Below, piece by piece: positions 1 to 19,170 of a stretch of 32,000 nucleotides of DNA; the first letter of the stretch is position 1; each line of letters begins with the position of its first letter. Under the pieces are notes generated by a model that saw only the letters and a program-made list of their open reading frames with translations, ran no database searches and was not told the DNA's origin. A program made the translations under genes and the position numbers. The stretch is from the NCBI GenBank assembly GCA_027371715.1, contig DAHXMM010000020.1, forward strand, positions 1-32,000, in the 5' to 3' direction. The DNA is from Elusimicrobiota bacterium. GTDB taxonomy: Bacteria; Elusimicrobiota; Elusimicrobia; UBA1565; UBA9628.

Positions 1-2
1 TT

Positions 3-3000: not shown

Positions 3001-4481
3001 CTTTCCCGGCTGATTCCGGCATTATTCCCATCACCAAGTCTCCGGATGTCTTGAGCGTATTTCCGACCAACCTTATCAACCCCGCCGGCGTCGTTCAAGG
3101 CCAAAACGCGCCGGCGACGGAACTCAGTCTGATCACCCAGCACAGTTCGGTGACCTGGACGACGATTGCCGTCCAAAGAAGCGGGACCTTGCCGGATTCG
3201 GGAGTTGATTCCGTCAATGTTTATTACGACGCCGATCAAAACGGGGTGTTTGATTCCTCGGACGTCTTGGTCGGAAGCGCGCCGTTTGTTTCCGGAACGG
3301 CTAACATTTCTTTTTCCACCGCTCAGCTGGTCAATCCCGGAGGTTCGGACTATTTCGTCACGCTTCAAATCGATCCGAACGCCACACCCGGAGATACCAT
3401 TGGAATTTCTCTCTCTGGAAATTCTAACTTTAAGGTTTTGCCTCCAGATACGGTTTCGGGATCGAGCCTTCCTTTTAATTCGGCCCTGGCGCCGGTCTTA
3501 AACATAAAAACTCCGATCACGCCCGTCGTCACATTCCCCAATGGAGATTTTTCCAGTTCCTTTGACTCCATCGGATTTATCTGGTATTCGACCGTCGCCG
3601 TCGGGTCTATTTCAAGCGCGGCCTATGCCGTAGGAACGACGCCCGGGGGAACCGATATTGCGCCCTACACCAATATCCCTTTCGCCGCTTCCAGCTTTAC
3701 CGCGGTCAATCTTCTGCTCAGTAACGGCGCGACCTATTACGTATCTGTCGAAGCGACGTCCAACTACGGTTTTACCAGTCCGCCGGGAACCAGCCCCGGG
3801 TTCCTGGTCGATTTGATTACGCCCATGCCGCCGAGTAGTTTGACGGCTAATGTCGGAGTCAGCTCGATTTATCTCACCTGGAATCCCGGCAGCGCGGGGC
3901 CCTCGGGACTCGCGGGATACCTGCTTGAATATTCCGATGTCGAACATCCGACCTGGTATAACGCGAAAACCGGAGCGGTCTCCGCCCTGGAGATGGGGAC
4001 TGTCCCTAACTCCGCCAGCCCGCATTCCGTCTTGTCGGCGAATTTTATTTCCGCTTCGCCGTTCTTGTTCAATAGCCCGCCGCAAGGAACTCTGATGTTC
4101 CGCGTCAGTTCAGTCAACGGCGCGGGGGTACAAAGCGCGCCTTCCGACACCATTCGCGTGCTTTTTGGGACGCAATCGACGGCGGGAATATCCAACGTTT
4201 CCTCCTATCCCAATCCCTTTAATTCTAATTCCGGCGTGGCCACCATCGTCTATACCTTGGACGCGCCGGGAAGCGTCTCGATTCAAATCTACAGCGTCTT
4301 TGGAAGTCTCGTCAAAAGTTTCTCTTATTCCGGTGGAGGCACGGGGGGAGAAGCCGGAGTCAACACCGTCACCTGGGATGGGACGGATTCCGGGGGCCGC
4401 AAAGTATCGAAGGGAATTTACATTGCCGTCCTTAAAGCCAACGGCATGAGCGTCCAATACAAGATCGGGGTCAATCACTGA
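3..4481 (+). CDS. Giant secreted cell-surface protein, 5'-truncated by the window edge; repeat-rich Ig/FN3-like modules with a C-terminal FlgD-Ig / T9SS type-A sorting-like domain
   Basis: Frame 3 is open from the window edge (GDHPTSIGSIYESPDGVNWNLVY... precedes the ORF-track TTG at 180), so the true start lies upstream. Stop TGA is at 4479-4481. Five ~160-aa modules share the motif LGxGxxSDISxVxIYxD. Two Cys-containing ~48-aa modules are present. There is an FN3-like segment (SIYLTWNPGSAGPSGLAGYLLEY). The last ~95 aa (SYPNPFN...VTWDGTDSGGRKVSKGIYI...) resemble FlgD-Ig/Por-secretion tail domains. Confidence 0.85.
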   Translation, partial: GDHPTSIGSIYESPDGVNWNLVYATSTDANFGALSDFNGQLYAGSVNGSIYQITPVAATLAGSDGTNAAEKLSATGLNLVQSTSTVTCGGVSPCGATDQIIFTASDLAGNVLESGPYAILVDTTVAPAISTPSYPSNGAYLNYQTNFSWIGPSTTVVSGLLPPSFYQLEVSNNDPTFATTFVNISTPIPPVNTGLATDNGAYISTYTFANLTTYYWRVRTVDGFGGTSPWSETFNFTTDFSSPTAVNGSFATLNSLGGLVPETQVTVLQNGVTAQLNITDIGSGFSAFNSTDYSVRYSTNAGAVWISDPFSALAFTGLIGQTSTQTFTAYGLNLAASTNSIVCAGISPCGASNQIEFTFSDQAGNFTTAGPYAIIVDTHSTDVLVSTADVAPLGIPQNTSVAFIRLTLNSLAGTAPWTGLTVERLGSGTDSDVQNVAIYRDSLGTGIFSPSDTQITQNAVFSGGVVNLTMTNPESITTSTKTYFVVYTAAAGALVGDGLQAEITSTASFTFNGGYAMSAAQTTIYPLISSTATVVDGPNYLYITPTSKAPSDDPPGTANIEMLALKAYTNTGTSTLSKIVFNLLGTGASNDISAISIYRDSNGTGVYANNDELVTSGSDAFLNGVSTVAFTTTIASETVTTSPIYYFVLISLSPNAPLGDTLGVSISTPSNVELIDVLDTTTFTSNPAASSLLTIEYVNTLNVQGASQIPPSLLQGQEYAVLKASFTVSTGETAFDGMDITRLGLGHDSDISAVRIWQDPNPPEAFNPATFLQLSSGSFVNGNAQLNFPLQTLSAGTTYVYYVTYDISPTATQGDTLGGRITSNLDISDTNPGTTIVGNFSINSATSPVVPTTAGLFVGAQNVAPSDLLQGATNQQMLNLTMDTTQYSVLLGALTFNSLGTAASSDISRVEVYQDLVGNGILNTTKDPLLSALSYPFISGTGIIPFSSGITISTISITLLVAVDVSTGANYINNDFGIGIATQANISINSPNFVVPSTTTFPADSGIIPITKSPDVLSVFPTNLINPAGVVQGQNAPATELSLITQHSSVTWTTIAVQRSGTLPDSGVDSVNVYYDADQNGVFDSSDVLVGSAPFVSGTANISFSTAQLVNPGGSDYFVTLQIDPNATPGDTIGISLSGNSNFKVLPPDTVSGSSLPFNSALAPVLNIKTPITPVVTFPNGDFSSSFDSIGFIWYSTVAVGSISSAAYAVGTTPGGTDIAPYTNIPFAASSFTAVNLLLSNGATYYVSVEATSNYGFTSPPGTSPGFLVDLITPMPPSSLTANVGVSSIYLTWNPGSAGPSGLAGYLLEYSDVEHPTWYNAKTGAVSALEMGTVPNSASPHSVLSANFISASPFLFNSPPQGTLMFRVSSVNGAGVQSAPSDTIRVLFGTQSTAGISNVSSYPNPFNSNSGVATIVYTLDAPGSVSIQIYSVFGSLVKSFSYSGGGTGGEAGVNTVTWDGTDSGGRKVSKGIYIAVLKANGMSVQYKIGVNH
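3995..4011. repeat. Palindrome copy inside the surface-protein CDS (read as MGTVPNS)
   Basis: gagatGGGGACTGTCCCTAACTcc, perfect core at 3996-4006. Confidence 0.85.
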
Positions 4482-5110: not shown

Positions 5111-5179
5111 ATCAGAGTCTCCCCTTATCCGAATTATCTCCTACCTCTCATACGTCAAAAACGAGAAAAAAGTTCCCTC

Positions 5180-5203
5180 AAAAAAAGGGACAGTCCCTTT
5201 TTT
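5180..5203. repeat. Palindrome copy, A/T-run-flanked subtype
   Basis: A7-GGGACAGTCCC-T6, core at 5187-5197, upstream of the RAYT start. Confidence 0.9.
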
Positions 5204-5205
5204 CA

Positions 5206-6765
5206 TTGATTCTAAACAAAAAAGGGACAGTCCCTTTTTTCTTATTTCTACTTCTCTCCTCCATATCGGCATCGGCCGCGAGCTTCTATGCGGGTTCTCC
5301 CAACGAGATATTTCAATTCGGCGCGGATGCCAGGGCCATGGGCATGGGCAACGCCTACACCGCCATTGCCGGTGGAGCGTCTTCCCTTTATTACAACCCG
5401 GCGGGCCTCGGTCTTCTCAATGGCCCCGATGTCAGCGCCATGCAGGCCAGTCTTATTGGCGGCGCGGCCTATGAAGATTTATCCTACGCCCAAAATTTCT
5501 CAAAAATGCCGGGAGCTTGGGGCGTTGAAGCCCTCAATATGGGAGTGGGAGGGGCCGAGCAAAGAGACTCTCAAAATAATCTCACCGGAAGCTTTGGTTT
5601 TCAAGAAACCGGATACGGAGCGGGATTTGGCCTAAGGAATGTCGTCATTCCGAACTTATCCTTGGGAGGCTCTTTTCAGGGGCTCAGCCGAAGCTTGGGC
5701 GGTAGTTCTTCCGACATGCTCTATGGAGCGAATTTGGGAGCCCAGTACGGCCCCTTTTTGGACAATATGGTGACCGCGGGTTTGGTCCTCCAAAACGGTT
5801 TTAACGGAGCGCAAAATACCTTTGACCGGCTACCCACGGTTTTACGCGCAGGGCTCGCCGTCACTCCCATCAATAATCTTCTCATTTCCGCGGATTACGG
5901 CGATGATGGCGATTACGGAATCGGCGCGGAATATCGAATATGGATGTTCGCCATACGAGCCGGATATATCCCCCAAGGCCTCACCTTCGGCGCCGGAATC
6001 TATTATCAATCTCTGGAAGCCGATGTCGCGATGGTCAACGATCCAATTTTTGGAATGGGGGAGAGATTCTCGCTTAATTACCGATTCGCGGGAAAGAAGA
6101 AAGAAAAGCCTCTTGAAGCTTACACTAATAGTTATCTGGATGCCGCAAAAAAAGAATTAAGTCTCCGCAATTATCTCAGCGCGCAATTCGCGCTTGAAGA
6201 AGCGATGGGAGTCTCTCCCGCTCAGATTCCTCAGACATGGAAAGAAAAACTCAAACTTCTTCAAGCTTTTAATGGCAGCCTAGATCTCAAAAACCGTCCG
6301 GATGAGGTCAAAACTCTCCTTGCAAAAGATCAACCGGCCATACTCGCCCAAAAATCGGTTTTTTCTTATTTAAACGGACGCGACGGAGACGCCATGATTT
6401 GGGCGTCCGTGGCAGCCGGAACCGCTCATAAATCCATGCCCTATATTGACTTTGTCAAGACGATGGCTTATCTTACGAATATGAAGGTTTCGGAAGGGGA
6501 TTTATTGCCTCCACCAGATTATGTTTCCAAAAAAATGGAGACTGCTCTTCATGCTATTTATCAAAAGCGTTTTGCCAATGCGGTTAAAAATTGCCAACAG
6601 GCCATCGTGGTAAACCCGAAAGAGCCTTCTGCCTGGACGCGGCTGGGTAGCGCTTATTTTGCCTGGGGACATAAGGATGAAGCCAAAAAAGCCTATCAGA
6701 AAGCTTTAGAGCTTGATCCCAAGAACGAAAATTTAAAGAAATTTATGGAGATGTATATCAAATGA
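5206..6765 (+). CDS. Outer-membrane beta-barrel protein (PorV/PorQ- or UPF0164-like N-terminal motif) with C-terminal TPR domain
   Basis: In-frame TTG at 5206 gives MILNKKGTVPFFLFLLLSSISASAAS, a plausible signal peptide; the first in-frame ATG would remove it. GADARAMGMGNAYTAIAGGASSLYYNPAGLG resembles the conserved N-terminal motif of PorV-like/FadL-like barrels, followed by Gly/aromatic-rich beta-strand-like sequence. The C-terminus has TPR-like repeats (AWTRLGSAYFAWGHKDEAKKAYQKALELDPKN). The 760-aa ORF-track model (4483..) is an antisense-RAYT artefact at its 5' end. Confidence 0.7.
   Translation: MILNKKGTVPFFLFLLLSSISASAASFYAGSPNEIFQFGADARAMGMGNAYTAIAGGASSLYYNPAGLGLLNGPDVSAMQASLIGGAAYEDLSYAQNFSKMPGAWGVEALNMGVGGAEQRDSQNNLTGSFGFQETGYGAGFGLRNVVIPNLSLGGSFQGLSRSLGGSSSDMLYGANLGAQYGPFLDNMVTAGLVLQNGFNGAQNTFDRLPTVLRAGLAVTPINNLLISADYGDDGDYGIGAEYRIWMFAIRAGYIPQGLTFGAGIYYQSLEADVAMVNDPIFGMGERFSLNYRFAGKKKEKPLEAYTNSYLDAAKKELSLRNYLSAQFALEEAMGVSPAQIPQTWKEKLKLLQAFNGSLDLKNRPDEVKTLLAKDQPAILAQKSVFSYLNGRDGDAMIWASVAAGTAHKSMPYIDFVKTMAYLTNMKVSEGDLLPPPDYVSKKMETALHAIYQKRFANAVKNCQQAIVVNPKEPSAWTRLGSAYFAWGHKDEAKKAYQKALELDPKNENLKKFMEMYIK
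5218..5240. repeat. Palindrome copy, A/T-run-flanked subtype, overlapping the OMP signal-peptide codons
   Basis: A6-GGGACAGTCCC-T6, core at 5224-5234, read as KKGTVPFF. Confidence 0.9.
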
Positions 6766-6910
6766 AAGAAACGGAAAGTAAAAGAAAGTTACGGAAAGAA
6801 AATGAAAGAAACAGAAAAAGGCCTTACCTTGCTCTTCGTTCCTTTCTGTTGCTTTCCGTTACTTGCCGTTGCTTTCCGTTTCTTGCCGTTGCTCGCCGTT
6901 GCTGGAGGTT
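6761..6910. repeat. Phased 10-nt repeat array: six NNNGAAAGNN units followed by eight pyrimidine-rich units ending in (C/T/G)GTT, mutually complementary
   Basis: Units at 6761-6820: aatGAAAGaa, acgGAAAGta, aaaGAAAGtt, acgGAAAGaa, aatGAAAGaa, acaGAAAAag. Units at 6831-6910: gctcttcgtt, cctttctgtt, gctttccgtt, acttgccgtt, gctttccgtt, tcttgccgtt, gctcgccgtt, gctggaggtt. There is a perfect 13-nt inverted repeat: AAGAAACGGAAAG (6766-6778) versus CTTTCCGTTTCTT (6872-6884). Confidence 0.8.
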
Positions 6911-6913: not shown

Positions 6914-9430
6914 ATGGACATCTTAATGATCGTTTTTATTCCCAGTCTTTTTATCATCCTGGGAGCCCTAATGTTTATCGTCAGCCGGGTGATGGAATTC
7001 TCGCAATCCAATCGTTATTTCGCAAAACAAAGAGGAAACAGCCTTATGTTTACGCGTTTCATGACTCAAATTGCCATGGCCAAAAGCCAACTTGGAAAAA
7101 GAGCCCAGGAATTGGAAGCTCTGTCCATGCGCCTTCAAATGAATAACGAAGAACTTGCCCGGCTCAACAACCTCAAAATGAAATTCTTATCAATGGCGGT
7201 TCATGATATTCGAAATCCACTCACCGCTATTACCGGTTACAGCGACATTTTGTCTCGCAACAAAAATCTAGGACCCAAAGAGCAGGTTTTGTCAAAAATG
7301 ATTTTGACCGCGACCCGGCAAATCAACCATCTGATGGGAGATCTCACCGATCTCGCCGTCATCGAAGCGGGAAAATTTAAAATGGAAATGGCGCCCTTTG
7401 ATCTGGCCGGACTCATCCAGGAAGTAGGGGCCACTTTGACCCCGGGAGCCTCCAACAAAGGCGTCATTCTTTCTGTTCGAGAACCTCCGCCCGGAATTAT
7501 CATCACCGCCGACCGCTACCGCATTTGGCGCGTTTTGACGAATCTTTTGGGAAATGCCGTTAAATTTACCCCTTCTGGAGGACGCGTCGAACTCCGGGCC
7601 GAAGTCGCGGCGGGAATGGCCATGATTTCAGTCCAAGACAACGGCCCCGGGATTCACCCGACCGAACGGCGGAAAATTTTTGAAAAGTTCTACCAGTCAA
7701 AACACATCAAAGATGAAAAAGCCCGCAAGGGCGGCTGGGGATTGGGACTGGCCATCGCCCAAGAAATTGTTCAGTCCCACGGGGGAGAAATCGGAGTCGA
7801 CAGCCGTGGTCTCGGACACGGTTCTACTTTTTGGGTTCGCATTCCTCTTAAAGCCAAGCGCCCCATCCGCTCCAGCCCCATGCGTCTTGCGCTCGCTTTA
7901 ATCGGGTTTTTAGCGCTCTCTTTGGCGCCGAAAAAAACTCAGGCTCAAACTGTTCCCTTCCTTGAAAAATCAAAATTCGAAAAATCATTGGAAACCAAGG
8001 TGGACGGAGTCCTTCTCAATATCTTGGGGCCCAATCGAGCCAAAGTCATCATCAACGCGACCCTCAATTTCACAAAAACCGAAAGCTTTCAAACCGAAGG
8101 CGCCAGCATCACGACGACAAAAACCTCGGGGCTTCCGTATCTTTGGCAAGAACCCAGTAAAACGGCGCAACCCGAAGAGTTGCTACCGGGAGTGCCGCTT
8201 GATTCCGGCGGCCCGGCTCTTCCCACGCCGCCGCCATCCATCAAGGGCTATAAAAAAGAAGATTCCTTCCCCGCCGAATTTATCAAAAGATTAGACGTCA
8301 CTCTCATTTTGGATAATTCCGTCAAGGGAAACCGGAGCGCCGAAATCGGCAAAATTACGGCCGATCTTCTCAGTCTCAATCCTAAACGAGGAGATTCTCT
8401 GACCGTGGTCCACACCGAGTTTTCTCCGATCTGGAAAACCGTTTGGTACTCTCCGGAAACTGCCGGTATGCTTCTTAAATATATTTTAACCGGATTTCTC
8501 TTTTTTATGGCGCTCATCGTCATCGCCGTCGGATTTATCAAAATCGCCAACGCCATGCGCATGATGGCCAACGCACAATCCCAGCAAATCTCAATGGAAA
8601 TGAAGGGGCTTGATGGCGAGGGGGGAAATGGACCGGGCGGAGTTTTAGGACATAATACGCTCATGATTGGGGATCAGAAATCGGGAGAAAACGCCCCTGA
8701 AAACAAAAACGAACCGGTCATGTTTGACGTGCGAATGGACCAAGTAGAAACCCTGGCTCAAATGCTTCTCCCCGAACCACCTGAAAATGTCGCCATTGTT
8801 GCCTCGCGCTTGACTCCGGATGTTTCAAAAAGGCTCATCGACGCCCTCCCGCCGGAACTGGCGAGCGCGGTCGTCAGTCAACTCGCCCGCCCGCGCTTTA
8901 TCGATCCGGAAATTATCGTCAACTTAAAGGAAGAGTTAGAACGGCGTCTTTCCGGCGCGGTCGGAGGAGTGCATTATCTCGCGGAACTGATGTCGGCCGC
9001 CAGCCAAAAAAGGCGTCATGAAATGCTGGAAGCCGTTCGCTCTCAAAACCAAAACCTCGCCGAGGAACTCAGAAAACGAGTCTTTTTCATCGAGGATCTC
9101 TCAAAACTAACCCAACAAGAATGGTCGTATCTCTTGTCCTTGGTCACTTATCAAGAATGGAGCGCCGGTCTCCATGAGGGTCCCCAAGTCGTCGTTGAAG
9201 CCATCAAACAAAATGTCTCAGAAAAAGCCTGGGGGGTTCTCAGCGAGATGATTGAAGCGGCTTCTCCCACAACAGAACAAACAGAAACGGCGCAAGATAA
9301 AATCGGTCAAAGCGTCTCAGAACTCATCCGGGAACAAAGAATCAAAACCATTGCGCCGCAATTGGGACTTCAAATTCATGAATCTCCAGTTGAAGAAGAA
9401 AAAGGCGCGGAAAGTAGTAAGGGCTCGTGA
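6914..9430 (+). CDS. Three-TM fusion protein: histidine-kinase core (HisKA + HATPase_c), FliF-like periplasmic ring domain and FliG-like (middle + C-terminal) domain
   Basis: ATG 6914 is preceded by GGAGG (6904-6908). TM1 is MDILMIVFIPSLFIILGALMFIV. Kinase motifs: H-box AVHDIRNPL (His codon 7202-7204), N-box LLGNAVKF, DNGPGI, GWGLGLAI. TM2 is at 7880-7927. FliF-like motifs are LGPNRAKVIINATLNF, IKRLDVTLILD and RGDSLTVVHTEFS. TM3 is at 8468-8548. FliG-like motifs are EPPE, GGVHYLAEL, VFFIEDL and NVSEKAWGVLSE. There is no in-frame stop anywhere between the modules. Confidence 0.8.
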   Translation: MDILMIVFIPSLFIILGALMFIVSRVMEFSQSNRYFAKQRGNSLMFTRFMTQIAMAKSQLGKRAQELEALSMRLQMNNEELARLNNLKMKFLSMAVHDIRNPLTAITGYSDILSRNKNLGPKEQVLSKMILTATRQINHLMGDLTDLAVIEAGKFKMEMAPFDLAGLIQEVGATLTPGASNKGVILSVREPPPGIIITADRYRIWRVLTNLLGNAVKFTPSGGRVELRAEVAAGMAMISVQDNGPGIHPTERRKIFEKFYQSKHIKDEKARKGGWGLGLAIAQEIVQSHGGEIGVDSRGLGHGSTFWVRIPLKAKRPIRSSPMRLALALIGFLALSLAPKKTQAQTVPFLEKSKFEKSLETKVDGVLLNILGPNRAKVIINATLNFTKTESFQTEGASITTTKTSGLPYLWQEPSKTAQPEELLPGVPLDSGGPALPTPPPSIKGYKKEDSFPAEFIKRLDVTLILDNSVKGNRSAEIGKITADLLSLNPKRGDSLTVVHTEFSPIWKTVWYSPETAGMLLKYILTGFLFFMALIVIAVGFIKIANAMRMMANAQSQQISMEMKGLDGEGGNGPGGVLGHNTLMIGDQKSGENAPENKNEPVMFDVRMDQVETLAQMLLPEPPENVAIVASRLTPDVSKRLIDALPPELASAVVSQLARPRFIDPEIIVNLKEELERRLSGAVGGVHYLAELMSAASQKRRHEMLEAVRSQNQNLAEELRKRVFFIEDLSKLTQQEWSYLLSLVTYQEWSAGLHEGPQVVVEAIKQNVSEKAWGVLSEMIEAASPTTEQTETAQDKIGQSVSELIREQRIKTIAPQLGLQIHESPVEEEKGAESSKGS

Positions 9431-9498
9431 CAAAATAATAACAGTCTCTATTTACTTCGTCATTTCTTCATGATTCAATACCATTTTTGTTCTATCCT

Positions 9499-10443
9499 AT
9501 GGGTATGGCTGAAAGTCCGAAAGGTTCCATCTTTTCCTCCTTAAGGGCGCTGGAAGAAATTCCGGAAGAAACTCCCGCCGCGCCTCCGACTTCGCAAAAC
9601 CCTTCACCCTCTCCCACCCCCGCCGCACAAACACCAACGCCCACGCCGCCACCTTCGCAAGCGCCTCCTCCATCAGATGAGACTTTGAAAGCCGTGGAGT
9701 CAAAAATCGAAAAGTTAGAACAAAAAATCCAGGAGATGGGGACAGTCCCCAATTCAGACCCTCATCTTAACCGTATTGAAGCCCTGGAGCAAAAATTGCA
9801 ACAAATGCAGGAACGCGCCATTCAGGCGGAGGTCGCTCTCAGAGAGCGCGAGAAATCCCAAGAAGCCGCCCGGCGCGAGACGGAATCTCTTCTTCAAAAT
9901 TTAGCGTCCCAGCGCCGGCTTGAAGAATCGGACCGGCAAATGAAGGAAAATCTGGCTTATTGCCGACGCCGAATCGAAGAATTGGAGGAAAAACAATCCT
10001 CTATTAAAATTCCGGATACCCAACAATCGGAAAATGAGTTTAAATCCCTCCTAAAAAGTTTTATGGAACAGATCGAGCTAAAAACAACTCCGGTTTTAGC
10101 GTCTCTTGTTGATCTCAGGAAAGAAAATGAAAACCGCGAAAAAGAAAATCGCGGCATGGAGCAAAGGATAAACGAGATTGAGAAAAATATCAATTCTTTT
10201 TTTTCGACAGAGTTAGGGCAAGCGAGCGCTCTAGCAGAAGGATTACGCCACCTAAAACAAACCGTGGAACGAGTCAACACGGAAACCGCGGAAAAACTCG
10301 AAAAAATAAGCGCCGCTCTAAGCCTATTAGAATTTAGGCATTCCCAAGCGAAAAACACAACAGAAGAATTACGCGCTCTCGATAAAGACTTTCAGAAAAT
10401 ACTCTCCATTCTCGATGCCAGCGTTTCCAACTCGCCCAAATAA
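9499..10443 (+). CDS. Pro-rich N-terminus / long coiled-coil cytoplasmic protein, unknown function
   Basis: The ORF has heptad-like charged repeats (IEKLEQKIQE, IEALEQKLQQMQERAIQAE, RRRIEELEEKQ) and a PT/PS-rich tract (PSPSPTPAAQTPTPTPPPSQAPPPS). The start is ambiguous (ATG 9499 or 9505; the ORF-track start at 9487 is non-ATG). It contains an in-frame palindrome copy (EMGTVPNS). Confidence 0.7.
   Translation: MGMAESPKGSIFSSLRALEEIPEETPAAPPTSQNPSPSPTPAAQTPTPTPPPSQAPPPSDETLKAVESKIEKLEQKIQEMGTVPNSDPHLNRIEALEQKLQQMQERAIQAEVALREREKSQEAARRETESLLQNLASQRRLEESDRQMKENLAYCRRRIEELEEKQSSIKIPDTQQSENEFKSLLKSFMEQIELKTTPVLASLVDLRKENENREKENRGMEQRINEIEKNINSFFSTELGQASALAEGLRHLKQTVERVNTETAEKLEKISAALSLLEFRHSQAKNTTEELRALDKDFQKILSILDASVSNSPK
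9738..9754. repeat. Palindrome copy inside the coiled-coil CDS (read as MGTVPNS)
   Basis: gagatGGGGACAGTCCCCAATTca, perfect core at 9739-9749. Confidence 0.85.
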
Positions 10444-10460: not shown

Positions 10461-10500
10461 GTATTTGGAATTCTCTTTTCTTTCCTATATAATAAGCAAC

Positions 10501-11238
10501 ATGGAACTAACATCGATCATCGGTCTAGGGGCTATTCTAATTTTAACTGCGATTGGCCTTGCCACTGGAGGGCTTCCGGCGGTTTTCATCAACTGGCATG
10601 GAATTGGAATCGTGCTTGGGGGAACTTTTTGCGCCCTCATGATCAACACCCCACTGGATATTTTGCTCAGAACCGGATCGTCTGTGACCGATTTAATTTC
10701 GGCCGATCCTTATGTCGACCGGATCGCTCTTGTGGACGCCATCATGACACTAGCACAAGAGGTTCAATCCCGGGGAATTAACGCCTTTAACAATGTCAAT
10801 AAAACAGTGGCCGCCGGGTATCTCGCTTACGCCGCTCAAATCGCGGTTGAATATAACAACCCTGAAACCCTCCGACAGGTGCTGGAAAATGAGATCATTC
10901 AAAATTCCGATTTACAGAACGAAGCGGTCAACGTTTTTAGAACCGCCGGAATTTTGGCGCCGATGTTCGGACTTTTGGGAACCTTAATTGGAATTGTCGA
11001 GGTTCTGCGCCAAATCGCCAACCCCGCACAAGTGGGTTCCGCCATGGCGGTCGCCATTACGACCGCTTTTTATGGCATCGCGACCGCAAACGTTTTTTGC
11101 GTGCCGATAGCCGGTAAACTAAGAATTCGCTACTGGAGAGAAACGCAGGCCAAGACCATGATTTTGGAAGGCGTCTTTGAAATCCTCCAGCGAACGCCCG
11201 CCGTCATTATCTCGCGGAAACTGAAATCTTATCTATGA
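10501..11238 (+). CDS. motA: MotA/PomA-family stator proton-channel subunit (MotA_ExbB family)
   Basis: MELTSIIGLGAILILTAIG...IVLGGTF N-terminal TM pair, a long cytoplasmic loop, then GILAPMFGLLGTLIGIVEVL and MAVAITTAFYGIATANVFCVPIAGKL, typical of MotA TM3/TM4. ATG 10501 is preferred over the ORF-track TTG 10465. Confidence 0.85.
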   Translation: MELTSIIGLGAILILTAIGLATGGLPAVFINWHGIGIVLGGTFCALMINTPLDILLRTGSSVTDLISADPYVDRIALVDAIMTLAQEVQSRGINAFNNVNKTVAAGYLAYAAQIAVEYNNPETLRQVLENEIIQNSDLQNEAVNVFRTAGILAPMFGLLGTLIGIVEVLRQIANPAQVGSAMAVAITTAFYGIATANVFCVPIAGKLRIRYWRETQAKTMILEGVFEILQRTPAVIISRKLKSYL

Positions 11239-11269: not shown

Positions 11270-11962
11270 ATGAGACGCTCAAGGCACGAAGACCTCGAAA
11301 ATCAGCTTGCGAAATCCGCCCAATGGGCCATTACCTATGGGGATTTCATGAGTTATCTCATGATTTTCTTTCTCATCATGTTTTCTTTCACGCTTTCAAA
11401 ATCCGGAGGGAAAACTACGGAAAACGTTAAGTATCAGGAATCCCTCATTAAAATTCAGAAGGTCTTTGGCGGGAAGGGAAGCTCCGTGGATTATGATCGC
11501 CTGATTAAGCGCGAAAAAGAAGAGTCCATGGTCACCCAACTTAAACAAGCTCTTGATAAAAAGGATTTGTCAAAATACGCGAAAATAGAAACCTGGGATA
11601 AAAAAATTCGACTCATCTTAGCCAGCGCGGTTCTTTTTGACTCCGGCCGAGCAAGCTTAGCCCCGCGATCGGAAAAAATTTTAGCCGCCGTCGCCCAACA
11701 ACTTAAAACCTTGGACAACCCGATTCAAATTGAAGGGCATACCGATAACGTTCCTATTAACGGCGGACGCTATAAATCCAATTGGGAACTTTCAATGGCG
11801 CGCGCCTACTCAGTTCTCGTTTTTTTTGAGAAACAAGGCATCGCGCCTCAACGTTTGTCCGCCATCGGCTACGGCCAATATCACCCCATCGCCGACAACA
11901 AAACGCCGGAAGGACGCGCTAAAAATCGTAGAATCGAGATAGATTTATTACGGACGGAATGA
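11270..11962 (+). CDS. motB: MotB-family stator subunit with OmpA-like peptidoglycan-binding domain
   Basis: N-terminal WAITYGDFMSYLMIFFLIMFS is a single TM with the conserved proton-binding Asp context (compare E. coli YADFMTAMMAFF). The C-terminal OmpA-like domain reads IQIEGHTDNVPI...SNWELSMARAYSVLVFF...IGYGQYHPIADNKTPEGRAKNRRIEI. Confidence 0.9.
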   Translation: MRRSRHEDLENQLAKSAQWAITYGDFMSYLMIFFLIMFSFTLSKSGGKTTENVKYQESLIKIQKVFGGKGSSVDYDRLIKREKEESMVTQLKQALDKKDLSKYAKIETWDKKIRLILASAVLFDSGRASLAPRSEKILAAVAQQLKTLDNPIQIEGHTDNVPINGGRYKSNWELSMARAYSVLVFFEKQGIAPQRLSAIGYGQYHPIADNKTPEGRAKNRRIEIDLLRTE

Positions 11963-11976
11963 AAGGGAGATCAAAA

Positions 11977-12999
11977 ATGAAAGAATTGTGGGCTATTCTC
12001 TGCACCATCCTAGTCTTGCCGGTCGCGGCTTTTTCAGCCGCCTCATCCGGAACGAATAATTCGAACACTGCCCCTTATCAAGGAGCCACGGCGCCGCATC
12101 CAAAACTTCCGCAAGATCCTTATCTCACGGCCCTTGACGACATCAAAAGCCCGATTCCCTCGGTTCGTTTGGCGGCAGTTCAAGTTTTAGCTCAAAACCG
12201 TAATCCTGCCTCCATCGCGCCTCTGACCCAAGCCCTTTCCGATAAAAACCCGGCGGTCTGCGCCGCCGCCATTCACGCCTTGGGTCTTTTAAGGGTTAAG
12301 GCCGTAGCTCCAAAAATCGCGCAACTTTTAGCCACCTCCCAAGCTTCCCAAGTCAGGCAAAACGCCGCCGTCGCCTTGGCTTATCTGGCCGATCCGGCGG
12401 CCATCCCCACCTTAATTTCCGCTATTTCCGATTCTCATCGAAGCGTTCGCTATGCGGCAATTAAAACCTTGGGCAGTCTCCACGCCCAGGCTGCATTACC
12501 GGCCCTCATTAACACGCTTAAAAGTTCAAACGCTAATATCCGAGAGACCGCCGCTGCGGCCCTGGGGCAAATTCAATCTCCAAAAGCCTCATCCGCCCTT
12601 GCCGCTTTAACGACCGACCCCAACATCCAAGTTCGAGAGGCCGCCGTCATCGCGCTTGGTTCAACCGGAGGCAAGACCGCCATCTCGCCCCTCCTCAAAG
12701 CGCTTAAGGATTCGAATTTTTCCGTCAGTCTTGATGCGGCCCGCTCTCTTTCAAAACTGGGAAATTTTAAGGGAAAAAGCGTCGCGCTCAAGGGATTGAG
12801 CCAAAAAAACTCCTTTCTCAGGCAAGAAGCCGTCACGGTTTTAGGAATGACCGGAGGGAAAAAAGCTCTCCTTGCGCTTGAAAAACTTTCTAAAAAAGAA
12901 AAAGATCCCGCGACGATTAGCCTCATTGGTTTTGCCGAAGCCCAAATCAAGGGACGCCTTGGAATAAGACCCACGCCTCCTCAATCGCGCAAAAAATGA
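11977..12999 (+). CDS. Secreted HEAT-repeat (PBS-lyase HEAT-like) protein
   Basis: ATG 11977 is preceded by GGGAGA (11965-11970). The signal peptide is MKELWAILCTILVLPVAAFSAASS. There are about 8 repeats of the type VRxxAAxALGxLxxxxAxxxLxxALxDxN. The stop overlaps the next start (ATGA at 12996-12999). Confidence 0.8.
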   Translation: MKELWAILCTILVLPVAAFSAASSGTNNSNTAPYQGATAPHPKLPQDPYLTALDDIKSPIPSVRLAAVQVLAQNRNPASIAPLTQALSDKNPAVCAAAIHALGLLRVKAVAPKIAQLLATSQASQVRQNAAVALAYLADPAAIPTLISAISDSHRSVRYAAIKTLGSLHAQAALPALINTLKSSNANIRETAAAALGQIQSPKASSALAALTTDPNIQVREAAVIALGSTGGKTAISPLLKALKDSNFSVSLDAARSLSKLGNFKGKSVALKGLSQKNSFLRQEAVTVLGMTGGKKALLALEKLSKKEKDPATISLIGFAEAQIKGRLGIRPTPPQSRKK

Positions 13000-15011
13000 G
13001 ACGCCTCTTCGGCCTTTTCTTTTCGCTGGCCTTAAGTTTTCTTTTTATCTTTCTTTATCGGCCAGCCATATTTGAACTCCAAGCCAACGATGTCTTTAAT
13101 AATCTGGAAAACTCTTGGCAGGATTTTCTTTTTCGCGTCAATAGAAATCACCTAAAGCACGGAGACCCTCGCATCATCATCGCGGCCATTGATGATCCCA
13201 CCCTTCATCAATACGGATACCCGCTTCCTAGAATAATTTATGCGAAGCTCTTAGATCGTCTTCACGAGTTAAAAGTCAAGACCGTGGCCTTCGACGTCCT
13301 TTTCGCGGACCCCCGAAAAGGAGATTCTGATTTAGCGCGCGCTCTAGGGAAATTTAATAAAAGCGTTCTCGCCTATGCTTATGATCAAAACAGTTCCGAA
13401 CATTTCGTTTTGCCCACGCGCCCGCTCTATCAAGCCGCAAAAAGACTTGGGTATGTCAATGTGGGAAATTGCATAGATCCTGATGGGCATATCCGAGAAT
13501 TTCAAATTTTTCAGTCTTCTTTTAAAAACCCAAAAACAAATTCGATGGGAGAAGCTCTCTCGGTTCCGACGCTCGCCTATTTTACAGGGCAACTCTTTGA
13601 AAAGACCACCGGCCTCGGCCCAACCGACGCGCATTTCTACATTAATTTTAGGCCGCCTACTTATGCCAACGATCAAGACGTGCTGTTCTCTTATCCCGTT
13701 TTTTCCATCGCCAAGATTTTAAGCAAAAACCTTCCGCAAAAAGAGAAAGATGCTTTAAAAGGAGCCTTAGTTCTTGTCGGCTCAACCGCCCTTTCCGCTT
13801 TCGATCATTATCCCTCGCCCTTTAGCGATGCCAGTCCCGGAGTCGAATATCACGCTAACATTCTGGACAATCTTCTTCATCGCAACTGGATGCGCCCCTT
13901 TTCGCCTTTTTATCAGATATTCATCATACTTTTGTTTATCTGGCTTCCCTTTTTTCTGAGACGCGCGCCGACGCAGTGGGAAACGTTTTCGGTTTTTGGG
14001 GTTTTCTTGGCCTGGCTTTGTTTTTGCGAATGGCAATTTTTGAAAGGAGTTCGCGTGGAATTCGTCCTACCCTCTGCCGCTCTTTTGACGTCTTTTGTCG
14101 GCGAAACTATCCATCAAGCCTTGACCGAGGGGCGGGAGAAAAAATTCATCAAGAACTTATTTACTCAATTTGTCTCTCCCGAAGTGGTTGAGGACCTCGC
14201 CAAAAACCCTGACAAAATTAAACTGGGGGGAGAAAAAAAAGACATGACGGTTCTTTTTTTGGACATCGCCCATTTTACCAGCATCTCAGAAAAAATGTCG
14301 CCGGAAGAACTCATCAAGTTTCTCAATCTCTATCTCTCGCGTTTGAGCCAAGTCATTTACGATTACGGCGGGGTCGTTGATAAATATATTGGAGACTCCA
14401 TCATGGCTTTTTGGAACGCTCCATTAGAAGTAAAATCCCATCGCATGAAGGCCTGCCTTGCGGCGTTATCCCTTCAAGACGCCGTTTTAGAACTCAACAA
14501 AAATCTGCCTTCAAGCATCCCACATCCACCTCAAGTGAGAATTGGAATCAATTCCGGCATTGTCACCGTGGGCCTTACTGGAAGCGAACATAAACTTCAA
14601 TATACCGTGATCGGAGATGAAGTTAATTTAGCCTCTCGCCTTGAAGGGGCCAATAAGTTTTTTAAATCGCAGACCATGATCAGCGAAGCCGTTTACGCCG
14701 AAGCCAAAGCGGAAATAGAGGCTCGGGAAATCGGGATTATCCGCGTTCTTGGGAAAGAAACCCCCATCAAGACTTATCAGATTCTGGCTCGAAAAGGAGC
14801 GCTTTCCCGCTCCTGGAAAACAGCCCTTCCGATTTACAATCAAGCGCTTCAAGACGTACGAAACAAGGAATACGTCAATGCCATCCATCTTTTTGAAACT
14901 TTCCTTAAAATTATTCCCAATGACGGAACCGCCTCATTTTATCTCTCCGCTTGTAAAAAAGCCCAAGAGAGCACTCCATGGGATGGAATTATTCATCTGA
15001 CCTCTAAATAA
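12996..15011 (+). CDS. CHASE2 sensor domain / class III adenylate (guanylate) cyclase with C-terminal TPR-like tail
   Basis: The N-terminal TM is followed by CHASE2-like IIIAAIDDPTLHQYGYPLPRIIYAKLLDRLHELKVKTVAFDVLFADP, then 3 TM helices. Cyclase motifs are MTVLFLDIAHFTSISE, VDKYIGDSIMAFWNAP and YTVIGDEVNLASRLEG. Confidence 0.9.
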   Translation: MRRLFGLFFSLALSFLFIFLYRPAIFELQANDVFNNLENSWQDFLFRVNRNHLKHGDPRIIIAAIDDPTLHQYGYPLPRIIYAKLLDRLHELKVKTVAFDVLFADPRKGDSDLARALGKFNKSVLAYAYDQNSSEHFVLPTRPLYQAAKRLGYVNVGNCIDPDGHIREFQIFQSSFKNPKTNSMGEALSVPTLAYFTGQLFEKTTGLGPTDAHFYINFRPPTYANDQDVLFSYPVFSIAKILSKNLPQKEKDALKGALVLVGSTALSAFDHYPSPFSDASPGVEYHANILDNLLHRNWMRPFSPFYQIFIILLFIWLPFFLRRAPTQWETFSVFGVFLAWLCFCEWQFLKGVRVEFVLPSAALLTSFVGETIHQALTEGREKKFIKNLFTQFVSPEVVEDLAKNPDKIKLGGEKKDMTVLFLDIAHFTSISEKMSPEELIKFLNLYLSRLSQVIYDYGGVVDKYIGDSIMAFWNAPLEVKSHRMKACLAALSLQDAVLELNKNLPSSIPHPPQVRIGINSGIVTVGLTGSEHKLQYTVIGDEVNLASRLEGANKFFKSQTMISEAVYAEAKAEIEAREIGIIRVLGKETPIKTYQILARKGALSRSWKTALPIYNQALQDVRNKEYVNAIHLFETFLKIIPNDGTASFYLSACKKAQESTPWDGIIHLTSK

Positions 15012-15735: not shown

Positions 15736-15746
15736 GGGACTGTGCC
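15736..15746. repeat. Degenerate palindrome copy GGGACTGTGCC
   Basis: agataGGGACTGTGCCtcttc, 4 nt after the stop at 15730-15732. It has one mismatch to the core and is complementary to 15770-15780 except at the central base. Confidence 0.6.
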
Positions 15747-15769
15747 TCTTCTTCATAATTCTTAAGGGC

Positions 15770-15780
15770 GGCACTGTCCC
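15770..15780. repeat. Degenerate palindrome copy GGCACTGTCCC
   Basis: aagggcGGCACTGTCCCgacc, with one mismatch to the core. Confidence 0.55.
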
Positions 15781-15801
15781 GACCTTAAGGTTCTAAGGAA
15801 A

Positions 15802-19165: not shown

Positions 19166-19170
19166 AAAAT

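Follow-up and report, generated by a model that had tools for sequence, protein, structure and literature searches.

A natural histidine kinase-FliF-FliG fusion of an uncultured Elusimicrobiota bacterium, and its possible place in a non-flagellar stator-rotor machine

What might a single protein made of a histidine kinase and pieces of the flagellar rotor do in the Elusimicrobiota? In free-living members of this phylum flagellar structural genes are absent, and homologues of motAB, flbD and fliG are present in a role described as enigmatic (bioRxiv 10.1101/2022.07.08.499144). The window considered here is a 32,000-nucleotide stretch of contig DAHXMM010000020.1. From its sequence alone, an earlier note had described one uninterrupted frame with a transmembrane (TM) helix, a kinase core, a second TM helix, a periplasmic FliF-like segment, a third TM helix, a Gly-rich linker and a FliG-like region. 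Independent sequence, profile and fold tests bear out all of these modules and their order (TM1, HisKA, HATPase_c, a signal-peptide-like TM2, FliF RBM3, TM3, linker, FliG middle and C-terminal domains), and the kinase-FliF-FliG fusion is confirmed as an observation. An ORF scan found the frame unbroken on the forward strand from 6863, or from the ATG at 6914 with GGAGG 7 nt before it, to 9430. The positions that had been assigned to the H97 codon (7202-7204), the hydrophobic stretch of TM2 (7880-7927), RGDSLTVVHTEFS (8387-8425) and TM3 are correct (Table 1). As the note had surmised, no characterised protein of this architecture came to light, since a literature search found no paper describing it.

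Table 1. Features of the fusion gene and its neighbours in the window
Feature	Position	Strand	Support
Giant surface-protein gene, 3' part, frame open to window edge	1..4481	+	no stop between 3 and 260
Outer-membrane PorV/PorQ/FadL-like beta-barrel, signal peptide, C-terminal TPR	5200..6765	+	NCBIfam PorV_fam, TPR_1
Histidine kinase-FliF RBM3-FliG middle and C-terminal fusion, 838 aa	6914..9430	+	ORF, Pfam, hhalign, PDB profile
TM1, aa 4-24	6923..6985	+	hydropathy 2.82
Kinase core: DHp (HisKA, aa 88-153, H97) and HATPase_c (aa 200-313)	7175..7852	+	Pfam
"TM2", resembles signal peptide, c-region ends T-Q-A344↓Q345	7880..7945	+	orthologue alignment, hydropathy
Periplasmic FliF RBM3 (S-ring) domain, shortened beta-collar insertion	7955..8428	+	hhalign, AlphaFold, Foldseek
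TM3, aa 519-545, runs on as long cytoplasmic helix	8468..8548	+	hydropathy 2.79
Gly-rich disordered linker	8606..8704	+	pLDDT below 50
FliG middle (aa 612-682) and C-terminal (aa 707-810) domains, torque helix included	8747..9343	+	Pfam, hhalign, PDB, rmsd
Coiled-coil protein, Pro-rich N-terminus	9487..10443	+	hydropathy, synteny
MotA-type stator A subunit, 4 TM helices	10465..11238	+	MotA_ExbB 80 bits
MotB-type stator B subunit: TM with conserved Asp, plug, OmpA-like peptidoglycan-binding domain	11270..11962	+	Pfam
HEAT-repeat protein with signal peptide	11959..12999	+	domain match
CHASE2 adenylate/guanylate cyclase	12996..15011	+	domain match

Four methods concur on the domains of the fusion: Pfam, profile-profile comparison (hhalign, with a fusion profile from 18 homologues), a profile search of the PDB, and Foldseek searches with AlphaFold models. 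All five Pfam families that had been expected were matched, namely HisKA (49 bits), HATPase_c (95 bits), YscJ_FliF_C (aa 457-503, 26.0 bits, cutoff 23.8), FliG_M (42 bits) and FliG_C (48.7 bits). In the hhalign comparison, aa 353-504 aligned with residues 236-430 of E. coli FliF, which correspond to RBM3 (92.5% probability, E 4.7e-7), and aa 596-810 with residues 104-321 of E. coli FliG (96.9% probability). The PDB search returned FliG (1lkv, E 3.7e-34) or FliF apart from a 16S rRNA methyltransferase (E 0.087), a weak chance match. Modelled by AlphaFold with a core pLDDT of 86-89, the periplasmic domain has the topology alpha-beta-beta-(insertion)-beta-beta-alpha-beta, and its 18 best PDB matches in Foldseek are all FliF RBM3/S-ring structures (first 7bk0_B, E 3.6e-8); the beta-collar insertion (aa ~395-445) holds an invariant L-P-G motif. 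For the model of the C-terminal half, all matches with E <= 1e-4 are FliG or FliF, and the modelled FliG domains lie within an rmsd of 1.6-2.1 A of those of T. maritima FliG. TM3 with its cytoplasmic continuation is supported by helix 192-243 of the AlphaFold model. It leads towards a linker whose length and sequence vary between homologues and which stands in for the interface between the FliF C-terminus and the FliG N-domain.

The absence of the N-terminal ring motifs of FliF and of the FliG N-domain, also proposed in the earlier note, was upheld: Pfam gave no match to YscJ_FliF (RBM1/2) in the fusion, and its sole FliG_N match (22.5 bits) falls below the cutoff of 25 and overlaps the M domain. 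Among orthologues the Gly-Gly hinge of the FliG part is invariant, and the FliM-binding EHPQR motif is lost, with another conserved motif, E/Q-D-P-A/E-N, in its place. The reading of K, E and M at the torque-helix positions of E. coli R281, D288 and D289 is right for the window. Of 40 orthologues, 28 have K and 10 have G/T/A at the R281 position; D288 is replaced by Q/E, and D289 by M/S/T. The classical torque-helix and stator-contact charges are not conserved.

The kinase has no sensor domain, as had been claimed, because only 3 residues lie outside the membrane at TM1; TM1 and a juxtamembrane motif are conserved in homologues. H97 never varies, the N, G1 and G2 boxes hardly do, and 32 of 34 orthologues have all four kinase motifs intact. 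Judged by these motifs, the kinase is predicted to be catalytically competent. The proposed three-TM topology needs one correction: TM2 is shorter and less hydrophobic than TM1 and TM3, with a hydropathy below the TM threshold, and has the layout of a signal peptide, with a positively charged n-region, a hydrophobic region of ~14 residues and a c-region. Of 34 orthologues, 29 have A and 4 have S at position -1 of the putative cleavage site, the residue at -3 is small or aliphatic, and P or G occurs at -4 to -6; fused and split forms share this pattern. Since the junction keeps a signal-peptidase-like A-x-A↓Q site, the kinase and the ring protein may separate after membrane insertion; cleavage there, inferred from the pattern alone, is given an even chance or slightly better.

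The orthologue search that had been suggested recovered the same in-frame fusion in ~20 independent Elusimicrobiota MAG assemblies, with identities down to ~35%. An assembly artefact is thereby effectively excluded, and the fusion is a natural gene of an uncultured Elusimicrobiota bacterium. The covalent link to the kinase is not universal, as the same kinase is a separate gene of the same operon in ~15 of 38 species. The synteny set consisted of 38 species-level genomes, all Elusimicrobia. At E below 1e-30 the family comprises 218 representative clusters, and RBM3-FliG fusions of 480-660 aa without the kinase make up the majority of them.

The conserved cluster consists of a giant protein, a PorV/PorP-like barrel-TPR protein, the kinase, the RBM3-FliG protein, a coiled-coil protein, MotA and MotB. 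Type A has the order giant protein, PorV-TPR, kinase fused to the FliF-FliG part, coiled coil, MotA, MotB, and type B has barrel-TPR, kinase, MotA, FliF-FliG protein, coiled coil, MotB. Type C consists of a giant protein, PorV-TPR, a FliF-FliG-TPR protein, a 925-aa protein, FlbD, MotA and MotB, and type D of a CHU_C protein, PorP_SprF-TPR, a HAMP kinase and the FliF-FliG protein. A neighbour-joining tree separates types A and B and places one later fission inside type A (loci L025 and L043). In the loci compared, the fusion is always encoded together with flagellar-type MotA/MotB and a PorV/PorP/FadL-like barrel-TPR gene; in most cases a giant protein ending in a T9SS-like domain is encoded there too. 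The same kinase is in the operon in every case, even as a separate gene. The giant gene is directly upstream in 17 loci. Type B loci have none immediately upstream, and the link to an adhesin is therefore not universal. Across 760 kb of these loci (not whole genomes), no other flagellar genes turned up at distances of up to 10 kb, with FliE, FliH, FliF RBM1/2, the FliF C-terminus and the FliG N-domain all absent.

Orthologues of the giant protein range from 2,200 to >6,900 aa. The window's copy matches FlgD_ig (28.4 bits, aa 1354-1420), and its C-terminus, which matches Por_Secre_tail (TIGR04183, 22 bits, cutoff 23) and the C-terminal regions of PorU and PorZ, appears to resemble a T9SS sorting domain. 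The barrel, kept in types A and B, matches PorV_fam with an E of 2.4e-20 but, at 73 bits, short of the cutoff of 90, and TPR_1 at 51 bits; its orthologues match UPF0164, PorV or PorP_SprF, and its TPR domain is presumed to be periplasmic. The listed start of this ORF at 4483 is spurious, and the true start lies near 5200. The coiled-coil gene occupies the same position in ~18 loci, and its product has no TM helix, signal peptide or Pfam family above threshold. The genes for the HEAT-repeat protein, which is probably exported given its signal peptide, and the CHASE2 cyclase, a possible second-messenger output, are confined to the window's clade (the window, L008 and L009). Regulators often lie near the cluster, with REC-GGDEF genes at six loci and CheY-like single REC domains at others; the window cluster has no adjoining cognate regulator, the nearest REC gene (26411-26788) being 15 kb off.

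The best NCBIfam matches of MotA are flagellar MotA and PomA, with TolQ reaching merely 27 bits, and all 38 orthologues keep the equivalents of E. coli P173 and P222. MotB matches MotB_plug (38 bits) and OmpA (78.6 bits), and its Y-G-D-F/L-M motif occurs in all 31 orthologues. With the ion-binding Asp, plug, peptidoglycan anchor and channel prolines kept, the stator is predicted to be competent. MotA E98 is replaced by K/R/Q among orthologues; of 38 loci, 21 pair K/R at this position with E at FliG position 287, and 9 have neutral residues at both. This pairing could reflect a rewired stator-rotor contact, but it rests on few independent changes. Because the classical charge pairs are not conserved, the contact between MotA and FliG may differ or be absent.

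The best explanation, a probable one, is that the Elusimicrobiota have a conserved stator-rotor machine that is not a flagellum, and that this gene supplies its rotor and signalling core. The firmest part of this explanation is the existence of a non-flagellar MotAB-FliG/FliF module, which is likely; coupling of the motor to the barrel and giant protein is only slightly favoured, and readout of motor state by the kinase remains tentative. The parts that tie these proteins to a flagellum are missing, namely RBM1/2, the FliG N-domain, EHPQR and the canonical torque-helix charges. A ring or rotor assembly coupled to phosphotransfer, as the earlier note suggested, is more strongly inferred because MotA/MotB and the same kinase share the operon. 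Rotation, ring formation and kinase coupling are nevertheless all inferences, and only monomers were modelled.

In this machine, RBM3 would build a multi-subunit S-ring-like ring, with a FliG torque domain hanging under the membrane from each subunit. Peptidoglycan-anchored MotA5B2 would push the FliG domains by ion flow, so that the ring turns or becomes loaded. The ring collar and the periplasmic TPR domain of the barrel would couple the ring to the barrel and giant adhesin, which it may move, secrete, anchor or tension; by analogy, such coupling would resemble that of GldLM with SprB/SprF or of SiiAB with SiiE. The sensor-less kinase, fused or from an adjacent gene, would be made beside the ring protein, where it might sense motor state (load, stall or assembly) through membrane contacts and then phosphorylate nearby REC-GGDEF, CheY-like or OmpR-like regulators. 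As the conserved A-x-A↓Q site suggests, fusion would ensure 1:1 co-insertion, after which signal peptidase I may cut. If this is true, the locus encodes a non-flagellar motor that has not been described before and that has a signalling arm of its own.

It is possible, though unlikely, that the system serves secretion or anchoring rather than motility, with MotAB and RBM3-FliG in the role of PorLM/PorKN. The motor would then power the passage of the giant protein through the PorV/PorP-like barrel, or its attachment at the surface onto that barrel. The giant proteins bear FlgD_ig, Por_Secre_tail or CHU_C C-terminal domains, the adjoining barrels match PorV, PorQ or PorP_SprF, and type B C-terminal-domain proteins are paired with PorP-like proteins in Bacteroidota (PMC9143113). 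MotAB-like SiiAB is also part of the SPI-4 type I system that secretes giant SiiE (10.1101/641415, PMC6272769). Several of these matches, however, are below threshold (the window's PorV-family and C-terminal-domain matches miss curated cutoffs), type B loci lack the adjoining giant gene, and an unsystematic look at the loci revealed no SprA/Sov translocon or PorK/N. This reading is in any case compatible with a stator-rotor machine, as it alters only the use of the torque.

Alternatively, and somewhat less likely still, the kinase could be the input and the rotor its target. A membrane-anchored kinase would receive a signal from a partner, and a CheY-like single-domain regulator from a nearby gene, once phosphorylated by the kinase, would bind the FliG middle domain and start, stop or reverse the motor, a short-circuited chemotaxis pathway within the rotor. 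Single-domain REC genes directly 3' of motB in L002, L006, L007, L012, L017 and L020 fit this proposal, and FliG-M has a free, conserved surface since FliM/FliN are not encoded nearby and EHPQR is replaced. CheY-like PorX has been proposed to act on the T9SS motor (PMC10951265). A separate input is not evident, however, without a sensor domain; many loci have REC-GGDEF or OmpR-type regulators, which are output-type effectors, in place of single-domain REC, and the window's clade has no adjoining REC gene.

A static platform, in which an RBM3-FliG ring recruits MotAB-like channels and the kinase without rotating, senses proton-motive force or envelope state and uses FliG-C as a mere docking site, is improbable. 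It would accommodate the lost torque-helix charges, the lack of axle, rod and bearing genes nearby, and the static RBM rings of SpoIIIAG and PrgK, which are weaker fold matches. It leaves unexplained the full torque-generating kit of MotB plug, Asp and peptidoglycan anchor with both MotA prolines, the conserved FliG-C fold and Gly-Gly hinge, and FlbD, a stator-associated flagellar protein, before motA in type C. A frameshift or mis-assembly of two ordinary genes, or a degenerating flagellar locus, could be entertained for a metagenome-type assembly without reads and with the kinase and ring protein as adjacent separate ORFs in L025 and L043, but is effectively refuted by the recurrence of the fusion, the size of the family, the conservation of all catalytic and structural motifs and the failure to find an internal start with a Shine-Dalgarno sequence at the kinase/ring junction.

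Among known systems, SpoIIIAG and PrgK/EscJ share the ring-building-motif fold, but their Foldseek matches (2y9j, E 1.8e-3; 5wc3, E 3e-3) are far weaker than those of FliF RBM3 (E 1e-8 to 1e-6), and none is fused to FliG. For the kinase, possible comparisons are flagellum-dependent mechanosensing (for example DegS-DegU of Bacillus) and the intramembrane-sensing kinases of the BceS/LiaS type, which lack an extracytoplasmic sensor and are presumed to respond to the activity of a membrane machine with which they are paired. The Elusimicrobiota kinase differs in being one chain with the ring protein or encoded by an adjacent gene, and no experimental link exists.

The flagellar rotor (FliF and FliG with MotA5B2) has the same RBM3 fold as the fusion, collar motif included, and the same folds of the FliG middle and C-terminal domains, again with the Gly-Gly hinge. 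MotA and MotB of the operon are of the flagellar type too, and the Asp, the plug and the peptidoglycan-binding domain are all present. RBM1/2 of FliF hold the type III export gate; the fusion lacks them and therefore, unlike flagellar FliF, has no seat for it. It also lacks the FliG N-domain and the FliF C-terminal peptide, EHPQR and the R281/D288/D289 charges are not conserved in its family, and the N-terminal anchor of its ring part is a signal-peptide-like segment. No FliM, FliN, FliE, FliH or rod genes are near it, and its host phylum is largely without flagellar structural genes. A covalent FliF-FliG link also occurs in engineered fusions of Salmonella and Vibrio (PDB 8z4d/8z4g), and 8z4d is among the sequence and fold matches of the window's protein. 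Those are laboratory-made and join complete proteins, whereas the fusion here is natural and consists of RBM3 and FliG-MC with a Gly-rich linker and a kinase. The engineered full-length fusions assemble rings (PMC11481574, PMC10941966, PMC6079021).

In SiiAB/SiiE of Salmonella SPI-4, too, the genes of a MotAB-like proton channel and of a giant non-fimbrial adhesin go together (PMC6272769, 10.1101/641415), but secretion is of type I, and the system lacks both a kinase and a rotor like FliG/FliF. In the T9SS and gliding machinery of Bacteroidota (GldLM/PorLM, GldKN, PorV, PorP/SprF, SprB) the motor is GldLM with GldKN, whereas that of the Elusimicrobiota is MotAB with a FliG/FliF-derived ring. 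The Elusimicrobiota barrels end in a TPR domain, and the loci (whole genomes not included) showed no T9SS core genes. Common to both systems would be a PMF-driven 5:2-type motor that is genetically tied to a PorV/PorP-family barrel and to a giant adhesin whose C-terminus serves for sorting, and the T9SS is also under two-component control, by PorXY (PMC10951265).

The kinase-rotor fusion (HK::FliFG) is encoded by an uninterrupted ORF in which the ATG lies 7 nt 3' of a GGAGG sequence and gives a product of 838 amino acids. Five Pfam domains follow one another in this protein in the order that the earlier note had read from the sequence by eye, and both the coordinates of the note and its claim of a single ORF hold. 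The FliF domain is the weakest of the five matches, and its identity was therefore tested in three further ways. A profile of 18 homologues aligned residues 353-504 onto E. coli FliF 236-430, which is its RBM3/S-ring region, in hhalign with a probability of 92.5% (E = 4.7e-7). A profile search of all PDB sequences returned FliG (1lkv, E = 3.7e-34) and FliF chains, and the sole other match, to a 16S rRNA methyltransferase, was weak (E = 0.087) and is ascribed to chance. In an AlphaFold monomer model of the periplasmic segment, the core reaches a pLDDT of 86-89 and the secondary structure runs alpha-beta-beta-(insertion)-beta-beta-alpha-beta; the best 18 Foldseek matches of this model in the PDB are all FliF RBM3 rings (E = 3.6e-8 to 2.4e-6), with PrgK and SpoIIIAG matching far more weakly. 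In remote relatives of the ring protein, the match extends over the whole 1-147 profile of YscJ_FliF_C.

The FliG part aligns to E. coli FliG 104-321 (96.9% probability in hhalign), its structure model superposes on the domains of T. maritima FliG at 1.6-2.1 A, and the Gly-Gly hinge between the middle and C-terminal domains is invariant (40/40). Within the kinase, H97 is invariant, and 32 of 34 orthologues have the H, N, G1 and G2 motifs all intact. The DHp domain is preceded by nothing more than TM1 and a coiled-coil linker, with no recognisable sensor domain. The FliF-like ring domain, the FliG middle and C-terminal domains and the sensor-less kinase core proposed in the earlier note are thus all supported by profile searches, and the first two by structure models as well.

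Positions of the features in the window, with Pfam scores for the domains of the fusion
Feature	Position (nt)	Residues of fusion (aa)	Strand	Remark
Giant surface-protein gene, 3' end	upstream of barrel gene			C-terminus like T9SS sorting domain
REP-like GGGACAGTCCC sites	3996, 4495, 4654, 5187, 5224, 9739, 10445, 11247, 15736-15812, 19269, 21516, 24559, 31258			
IS200/Y1-transposase (RAYT-like) gene	4475-5110		-	
PorV/PorQ-family-like barrel with C-terminal TPR domain	about 5200-6765			directly before kinase-rotor gene
Leader array	6759-6900			just upstream of kinase-rotor gene
Kinase-rotor fusion	6863 (TTG) or 6914 (ATG) to 9430		+	
HisKA		88-153		49 bits
HATPase_c		200-313		95 bits
TM2 with signal-peptidase-I-like site at kinase/ring junction	7880-7948	323-345		
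YscJ_FliF_C (RBM3/S-ring domain with beta-collar)		457-503		26.0 bits, cutoff 23.8
FliG_M		612-682		42 bits
FliG_C		707-810		48.7 bits
Coiled-coil protein	9487-10443		same as fusion	no Pfam match above threshold
MotA	10465-11238		same as fusion	
MotB with plug and OmpA domain	11270-11962		same as fusion	
HEAT-repeat protein with signal peptide, then CHASE2 adenylate/guanylate cyclase	11959-15011		same as fusion	after motB
Aromatic amino-acid catabolism-type genes	15837-22907			downstream of cluster

RBM1 and RBM2 of FliF lie around the export gate, and no match to them (YscJ_FliF, PF01514) was obtained in the fusion with Pfam at E <= 1; the periplasmic segment is only ~175 amino acids long. 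The C-terminal cytoplasmic peptide of FliF, which binds the FliG N-domain, is absent, and in its place a Gly-rich linker is joined directly to FliG-M. The match to FliG_N is sub-threshold and overlaps the M domain, and the FliG alignment starts at residue 104. The inference in the earlier note that the FliF N-terminal ring motifs and the FliG N-domain are missing, and that a covalent link replaces the interface on which FliF and FliG dock, is therefore upheld. The EHPQR motif of FliG-M, which binds FliM, is replaced by E/Q-D-P-A/E-N, and R160 is not conserved. The residues that had been assigned by eye to E. coli R281, D288 and D289 in the torque helix (K, E and M) are correct for the window protein. 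Among orthologues the canonical charges are not kept: the R281 equivalent is K in 28/40, R in 2 and otherwise G/T/A, the D288 equivalent is Q in 30/40 and E in 10/40, and the D289 equivalent is M/S/T. What is conserved in the helix is K-x-W-x-x-x-E-Q, unlike the canonical pattern. With E. coli FliE, FliH, FliF 1-230, FliF 451-552 and FliG 1-100 as queries, nothing was found in 760 kb of loci; in the same search only RBM3 and FliG-MC matched, each time in the fusion itself. The fusion protein has domains homologous to FliF and to FliG but is an orthologue of neither: RBM1/2, the FliG-binding tail and a flagellar context are missing on the FliF side, and the N-domain, the EHPQR motif and the charge pattern on the FliG side. 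The possibility that this is an ordinary flagellar locus was rejected, as the neighbours are PorV-like, MotAB, coiled-coil and giant proteins and there is no FliE or FliH in the loci searched.

When the C-terminal 516 amino acids of the fusion were searched against 5.8 billion proteins, 16 further complete kinase-RBM3-FliG proteins (819-876 aa, identity down to 38%) and one 534-aa protein without the kinase were recovered. A scan limited to one genome per species gave 38 loci from groundwater, sediment and soil; all records that name a taxon are Elusimicrobia or Elusimicrobiota, and five are labelled merely 'bacterium'. The RBM3 core, an L-P-G collar motif, the Gly-Gly hinge and much of FliG-C are conserved among the homologues. 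Orthologues with the same fusion, for which the earlier note had proposed a search in other metagenome-assembled genomes, are thus present in ~20 independent assemblies. No reads were mapped, but this recurrence, together with the conservation of H97, the N, G1 and G2 boxes and the core regions of RBM3 and FliG-C, rules out a frameshift or mis-assembly artefact. When 1.84 billion cluster representatives were searched, 218 clusters were found at E below 1e-30, most of them kinase-less RBM3-TM-FliG proteins of 480-660 aa, which shows that the natural RBM3-FliG fusion is a sizeable family. The kinase is a recurrent partner of RBM3-FliG and is physically fused to it in one clade. Hardly any of the remote relatives carries a taxon; those that are named belong to Elusimicrobia or Elusimicrobiota, except for one short contig labelled Thermoprotei that is probably mis-binned. 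A separate set of ~30 proteins of roughly 624 aa (P0183-P0212), one of which is labelled as derived from a Deltaproteobacteria MAG, has FliG_N, FliG_M and FliG_C plus ~300 extra residues, an unusual FliG architecture unrelated to the RBM3-FliG family.

The window's proteins were mapped onto all fetched loci, which fall into several types. Type A, found in about 20 species including that of the window, has the giant protein, PorV-TPR, HK::FliFG, the coiled coil, MotA and MotB. Type B (about 15 species) has barrel-TPR, a separate kinase gene (~315 aa), MotA, FliFG (~520 aa), the coiled coil and MotB. The two types separate in a distance tree of the ring protein, where loci L025 and L043 represent a later fission within the fused clade. 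Among more distant relatives, type C has the giant protein, PorV-TPR, FliFG with an extra C-terminal TPR, a 925-aa protein, FlbD, MotA and MotB. Type D has a CHU_C protein, PorP_SprF-TPR, a kinase and FliFG, with MotAB nearby in 1 of 2 contigs; its kinase contains a HAMP domain, in contrast to the window kinase, which has no sensor domain. In the window, the barrel (PorV_fam, 73 bits against a cutoff of 90) and the giant protein (Por_Secre_tail, 22 against 23) fall below the curated thresholds; relatives give clear PorV, PorP_SprF and CHU_C matches. Neither SprA/Sov nor GldK/L/M/N is visible in the Pfam-annotated ±10 kb loci, to which this negative result is confined. Greedy clustering of the ORFs of the loci for further conserved neighbours was noisy because of antisense ORFs in GC-rich DNA, and only the core genes emerged from it.

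REC-GGDEF response regulators occur near the cluster in six loci, and single REC or OmpR-like ones in others. No response regulator gene adjoins the cluster in the window, and phosphotransfer to the regulators of other loci is only inferred. The HEAT-repeat and CHASE2 cyclase genes after motB are confined to the window's clade (the window and loci L008 and L009), and in other clades REC-GGDEF or CheY-like genes close to the cluster take the place of this pair. The system may therefore have a different output in different clades, cNMP in one and c-di-GMP in another. Two loci with kinase-less relatives of the ring protein contain genes for small proteins from motility regulation or stator function: a Roadblock/LC7 (MglB-like) gene downstream of the ring gene in L047 (15798-16145), and an FlbD gene directly 5' of motA in L048 (14819-15052). 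The catabolism-type run downstream of the window's cluster encodes a thiolase, a histidine/phenylalanine ammonia-lyase family enzyme, a fumarylacetoacetate hydrolase, a weak homogentisate-dioxygenase-like protein and a flavin reductase, and probably has no connection with the motor cluster.

About 14 sites in the window, mostly intergenic, carry a REP-like palindrome, GGGACAGTCCC (27 strand-matches at up to 1 mismatch versus 0.3 expected), and the IS200/Y1-transposase gene lies close to such sites. When translated, the palindrome yields the recurring peptide 'KKGTVPF', which artificially lengthens both ORF 4483-6765 and, at its annotated N-terminus, the orthologue P0001. The leader of the kinase-rotor gene is an array with a 10-nt period, in which GAAAGnnAnn is repeated ~5 times and then the complement, GCTTTCCGTT, ~7 times. 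It folds into an imperfect hairpin with 54-nt arms (RNA fold -58.8 kcal/mol, z = -5.7, no shuffle as stable) that may be a processing, stability or attenuation element. A 93%-identical orthologue (P0001/P0218, on the L008 contig) has an annotated N-terminal extension with the REP-derived 'KKGTVPF', and its leader may therefore differ, to judge from the annotated protein and not from the L008 DNA.

The second TM helix of the earlier note is correctly placed but is not a typical membrane helix. TM2 resembles a signal peptide, with a hydrophobic core of ~14 residues and hydropathy below threshold, TM1 and TM3 being well above it. Six Lys/Arg residues stand just N-terminal to it, Pro or Gly is found at -4 to -6, and it ends in a signal-peptidase-I-type site, A-x-A/Q (the slash marks the predicted cut), at the kinase/ring junction, with Ala at -1 in 29/34 orthologues and Ser in 4/34, a small or aliphatic residue at -3 and an almost invariant Gln at +1. 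The ring protein of split forms has this segment as its N-terminal signal peptide, and fused forms keep all the signal-peptide features despite divergence to about 35-40% identity. The fusion likely originated through loss of a stop codon between adjacent kinase and ring genes arranged as in L025 and L043. Retention of the site in both fused and split forms suggests that the fusion may be cut after membrane insertion. After cleavage, a kinase with two TM helices would stand beside a ring protein that crosses the membrane once and starts at Q345, in which case the fusion would be a guarantee of 1:1 synthesis and co-insertion and not a permanent mechanical link, although this is an inference. 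Internal translation initiation at M323 was also considered and rejected, as no SD-like sequence precedes the ATG at 7880 and the Met is unconserved outside the window's clade.

MotA of the cluster has four TM helices and both channel prolines, which are invariant, and MotB has the TM Asp (31/31 orthologues), a plug and an OmpA-like domain. The two proteins score below the NCBIfam equivalog cutoffs (144 vs 237 and 177 vs 283), which marks them as a divergent branch of flagellar-type stators. In an approximate alignment of the MotA loop, the R90 position is Q/R/H and the E98 position is K/R/Q/N. A basic residue at MotA 98 is accompanied by an acidic residue at FliG 287 in 21/38 loci, and both positions are neutral in 9/38. 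These residues hint that the MotA-FliG contact may have been rewired, but the independent changes are few and phylogenetically confounded, and they are no proof. An ExbBD/TolQR-type motor was rejected, as the best matches are flagellar MotA, PomA, MotB and MotD, with TolQ at only 27 bits. Zorya has ZorA with a long cytoplasmic tail together with ZorC/D or ZorE. Both Zorya (ZorAB) and other defence systems were rejected with PADLOC, in which the 257-aa MotA had no match and only MotB matched ZorB, through shared MotB/OmpA homology.

What has been observed is the set of parts, their conservation and the intact state of kinase and stator; the way in which the parts operate together is inferred. 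RBM3 would build an S-ring-like ring, an inference from monomer models only, and the FliG-C domains under the ring would be engaged by peptidoglycan-anchored MotA5B2, with ion flow loading or turning the ring. The collar side of the ring would face the periplasmic TPR domain of the PorV/PorP-like barrel, and the barrel, by analogy with PorV and SprF, may hold the giant surface protein by its C-terminal domain. In this way the adhesin would be moved, secreted or tensioned by the machine, as SprB is by GldLM and as is proposed for SiiE and the MotAB-like pair SiiAB. The kinase, which has no sensor and is always co-encoded, would read the state of the motor and pass it to second-messenger or CheY-like outputs. 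Reading of the motor state is the most likely role of the kinase, although it is inferred. A serious rival is that signalling runs in the reverse direction, with the kinase controlling the rotor via a CheY-like protein on the FliM-less surface of FliG-M. That the assembly serves merely as a static platform for docking is less likely, given that all of the torque kit has been retained.

It is possible, although rather doubtful at present, that Elusimicrobiota hold an ion-driven surface machine of a third kind. This would be a free-standing rotary motor with no components other than an RBM3-FliG ring and MotAB, without type III export, rod or filament; it would drive or tension giant T9SS-type adhesins via PorV/PorP-like barrels and report load through a kinase that is made as one chain with the rotor. 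A rotor-stator module as small as this could have come down from a pre-flagellar motor as a relic, or could be a radical reduction of the flagellum. To our knowledge, FliG and the FliF ring have not been described outside the flagellum. The fusion is a natural, trimmed, single-chain rotor whose stator genes have been kept with nothing of the secretion, rod or switch apparatus, in a phylum mostly without flagellar structural genes. The novelty lies in the redeployment of flagellar-type rotor and stator parts outside the flagellum; that they constitute a distinct type of surface machine is a tentative suggestion for which the odds are somewhat unfavourable. If true, the half of the flagellum that generates torque can exist and work independently of the half that secretes. 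Should the module operate as a motor, it would be a minimal system for torque generation consisting of one ring protein and MotAB, and the joining of the flagellar motor and export apparatus would become directly testable. We know of no more direct genetic link between a rotor-stator machine and two-component signalling than a kinase that is fused or always adjacent, and this link provides a tangible model of how a motor could serve to sense surfaces or load.

A preprint on magnetotactic Elusimicrobiota describes cultured members as non-motile, and reports a full flagellar gene set in only a few genomes of the phylum and motAB, flbD and fliG homologues of 'unclear' role in most free-living members (10.1101/2022.07.08.499144). 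These orphan annotations evidently correspond to the present locus, and a working motor module would explain such 'enigmatic' genes. No published description of the RBM3-FliG family, the kinase fusion or the gene cluster was found in a literature search of incomplete coverage, in which subscription journals were mostly missing, and the sole related statement was the one on orphan motAB, flbD and fliG; within that limit, the statement of the earlier note that no protein of this architecture has been characterised stands. For the covalent link, laboratory FliF-FliG fusions (PMC11481574, PMC10941966, PMC6079021) are the nearest precedents, and in function the T9SS gliding motor and SiiAB/SiiE come closest. 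The pairing with PorV/PorP-like barrels and giant adhesins hints at a device for gliding or secretion whose evolution ran parallel to that of the T9SS of Bacteroidota.
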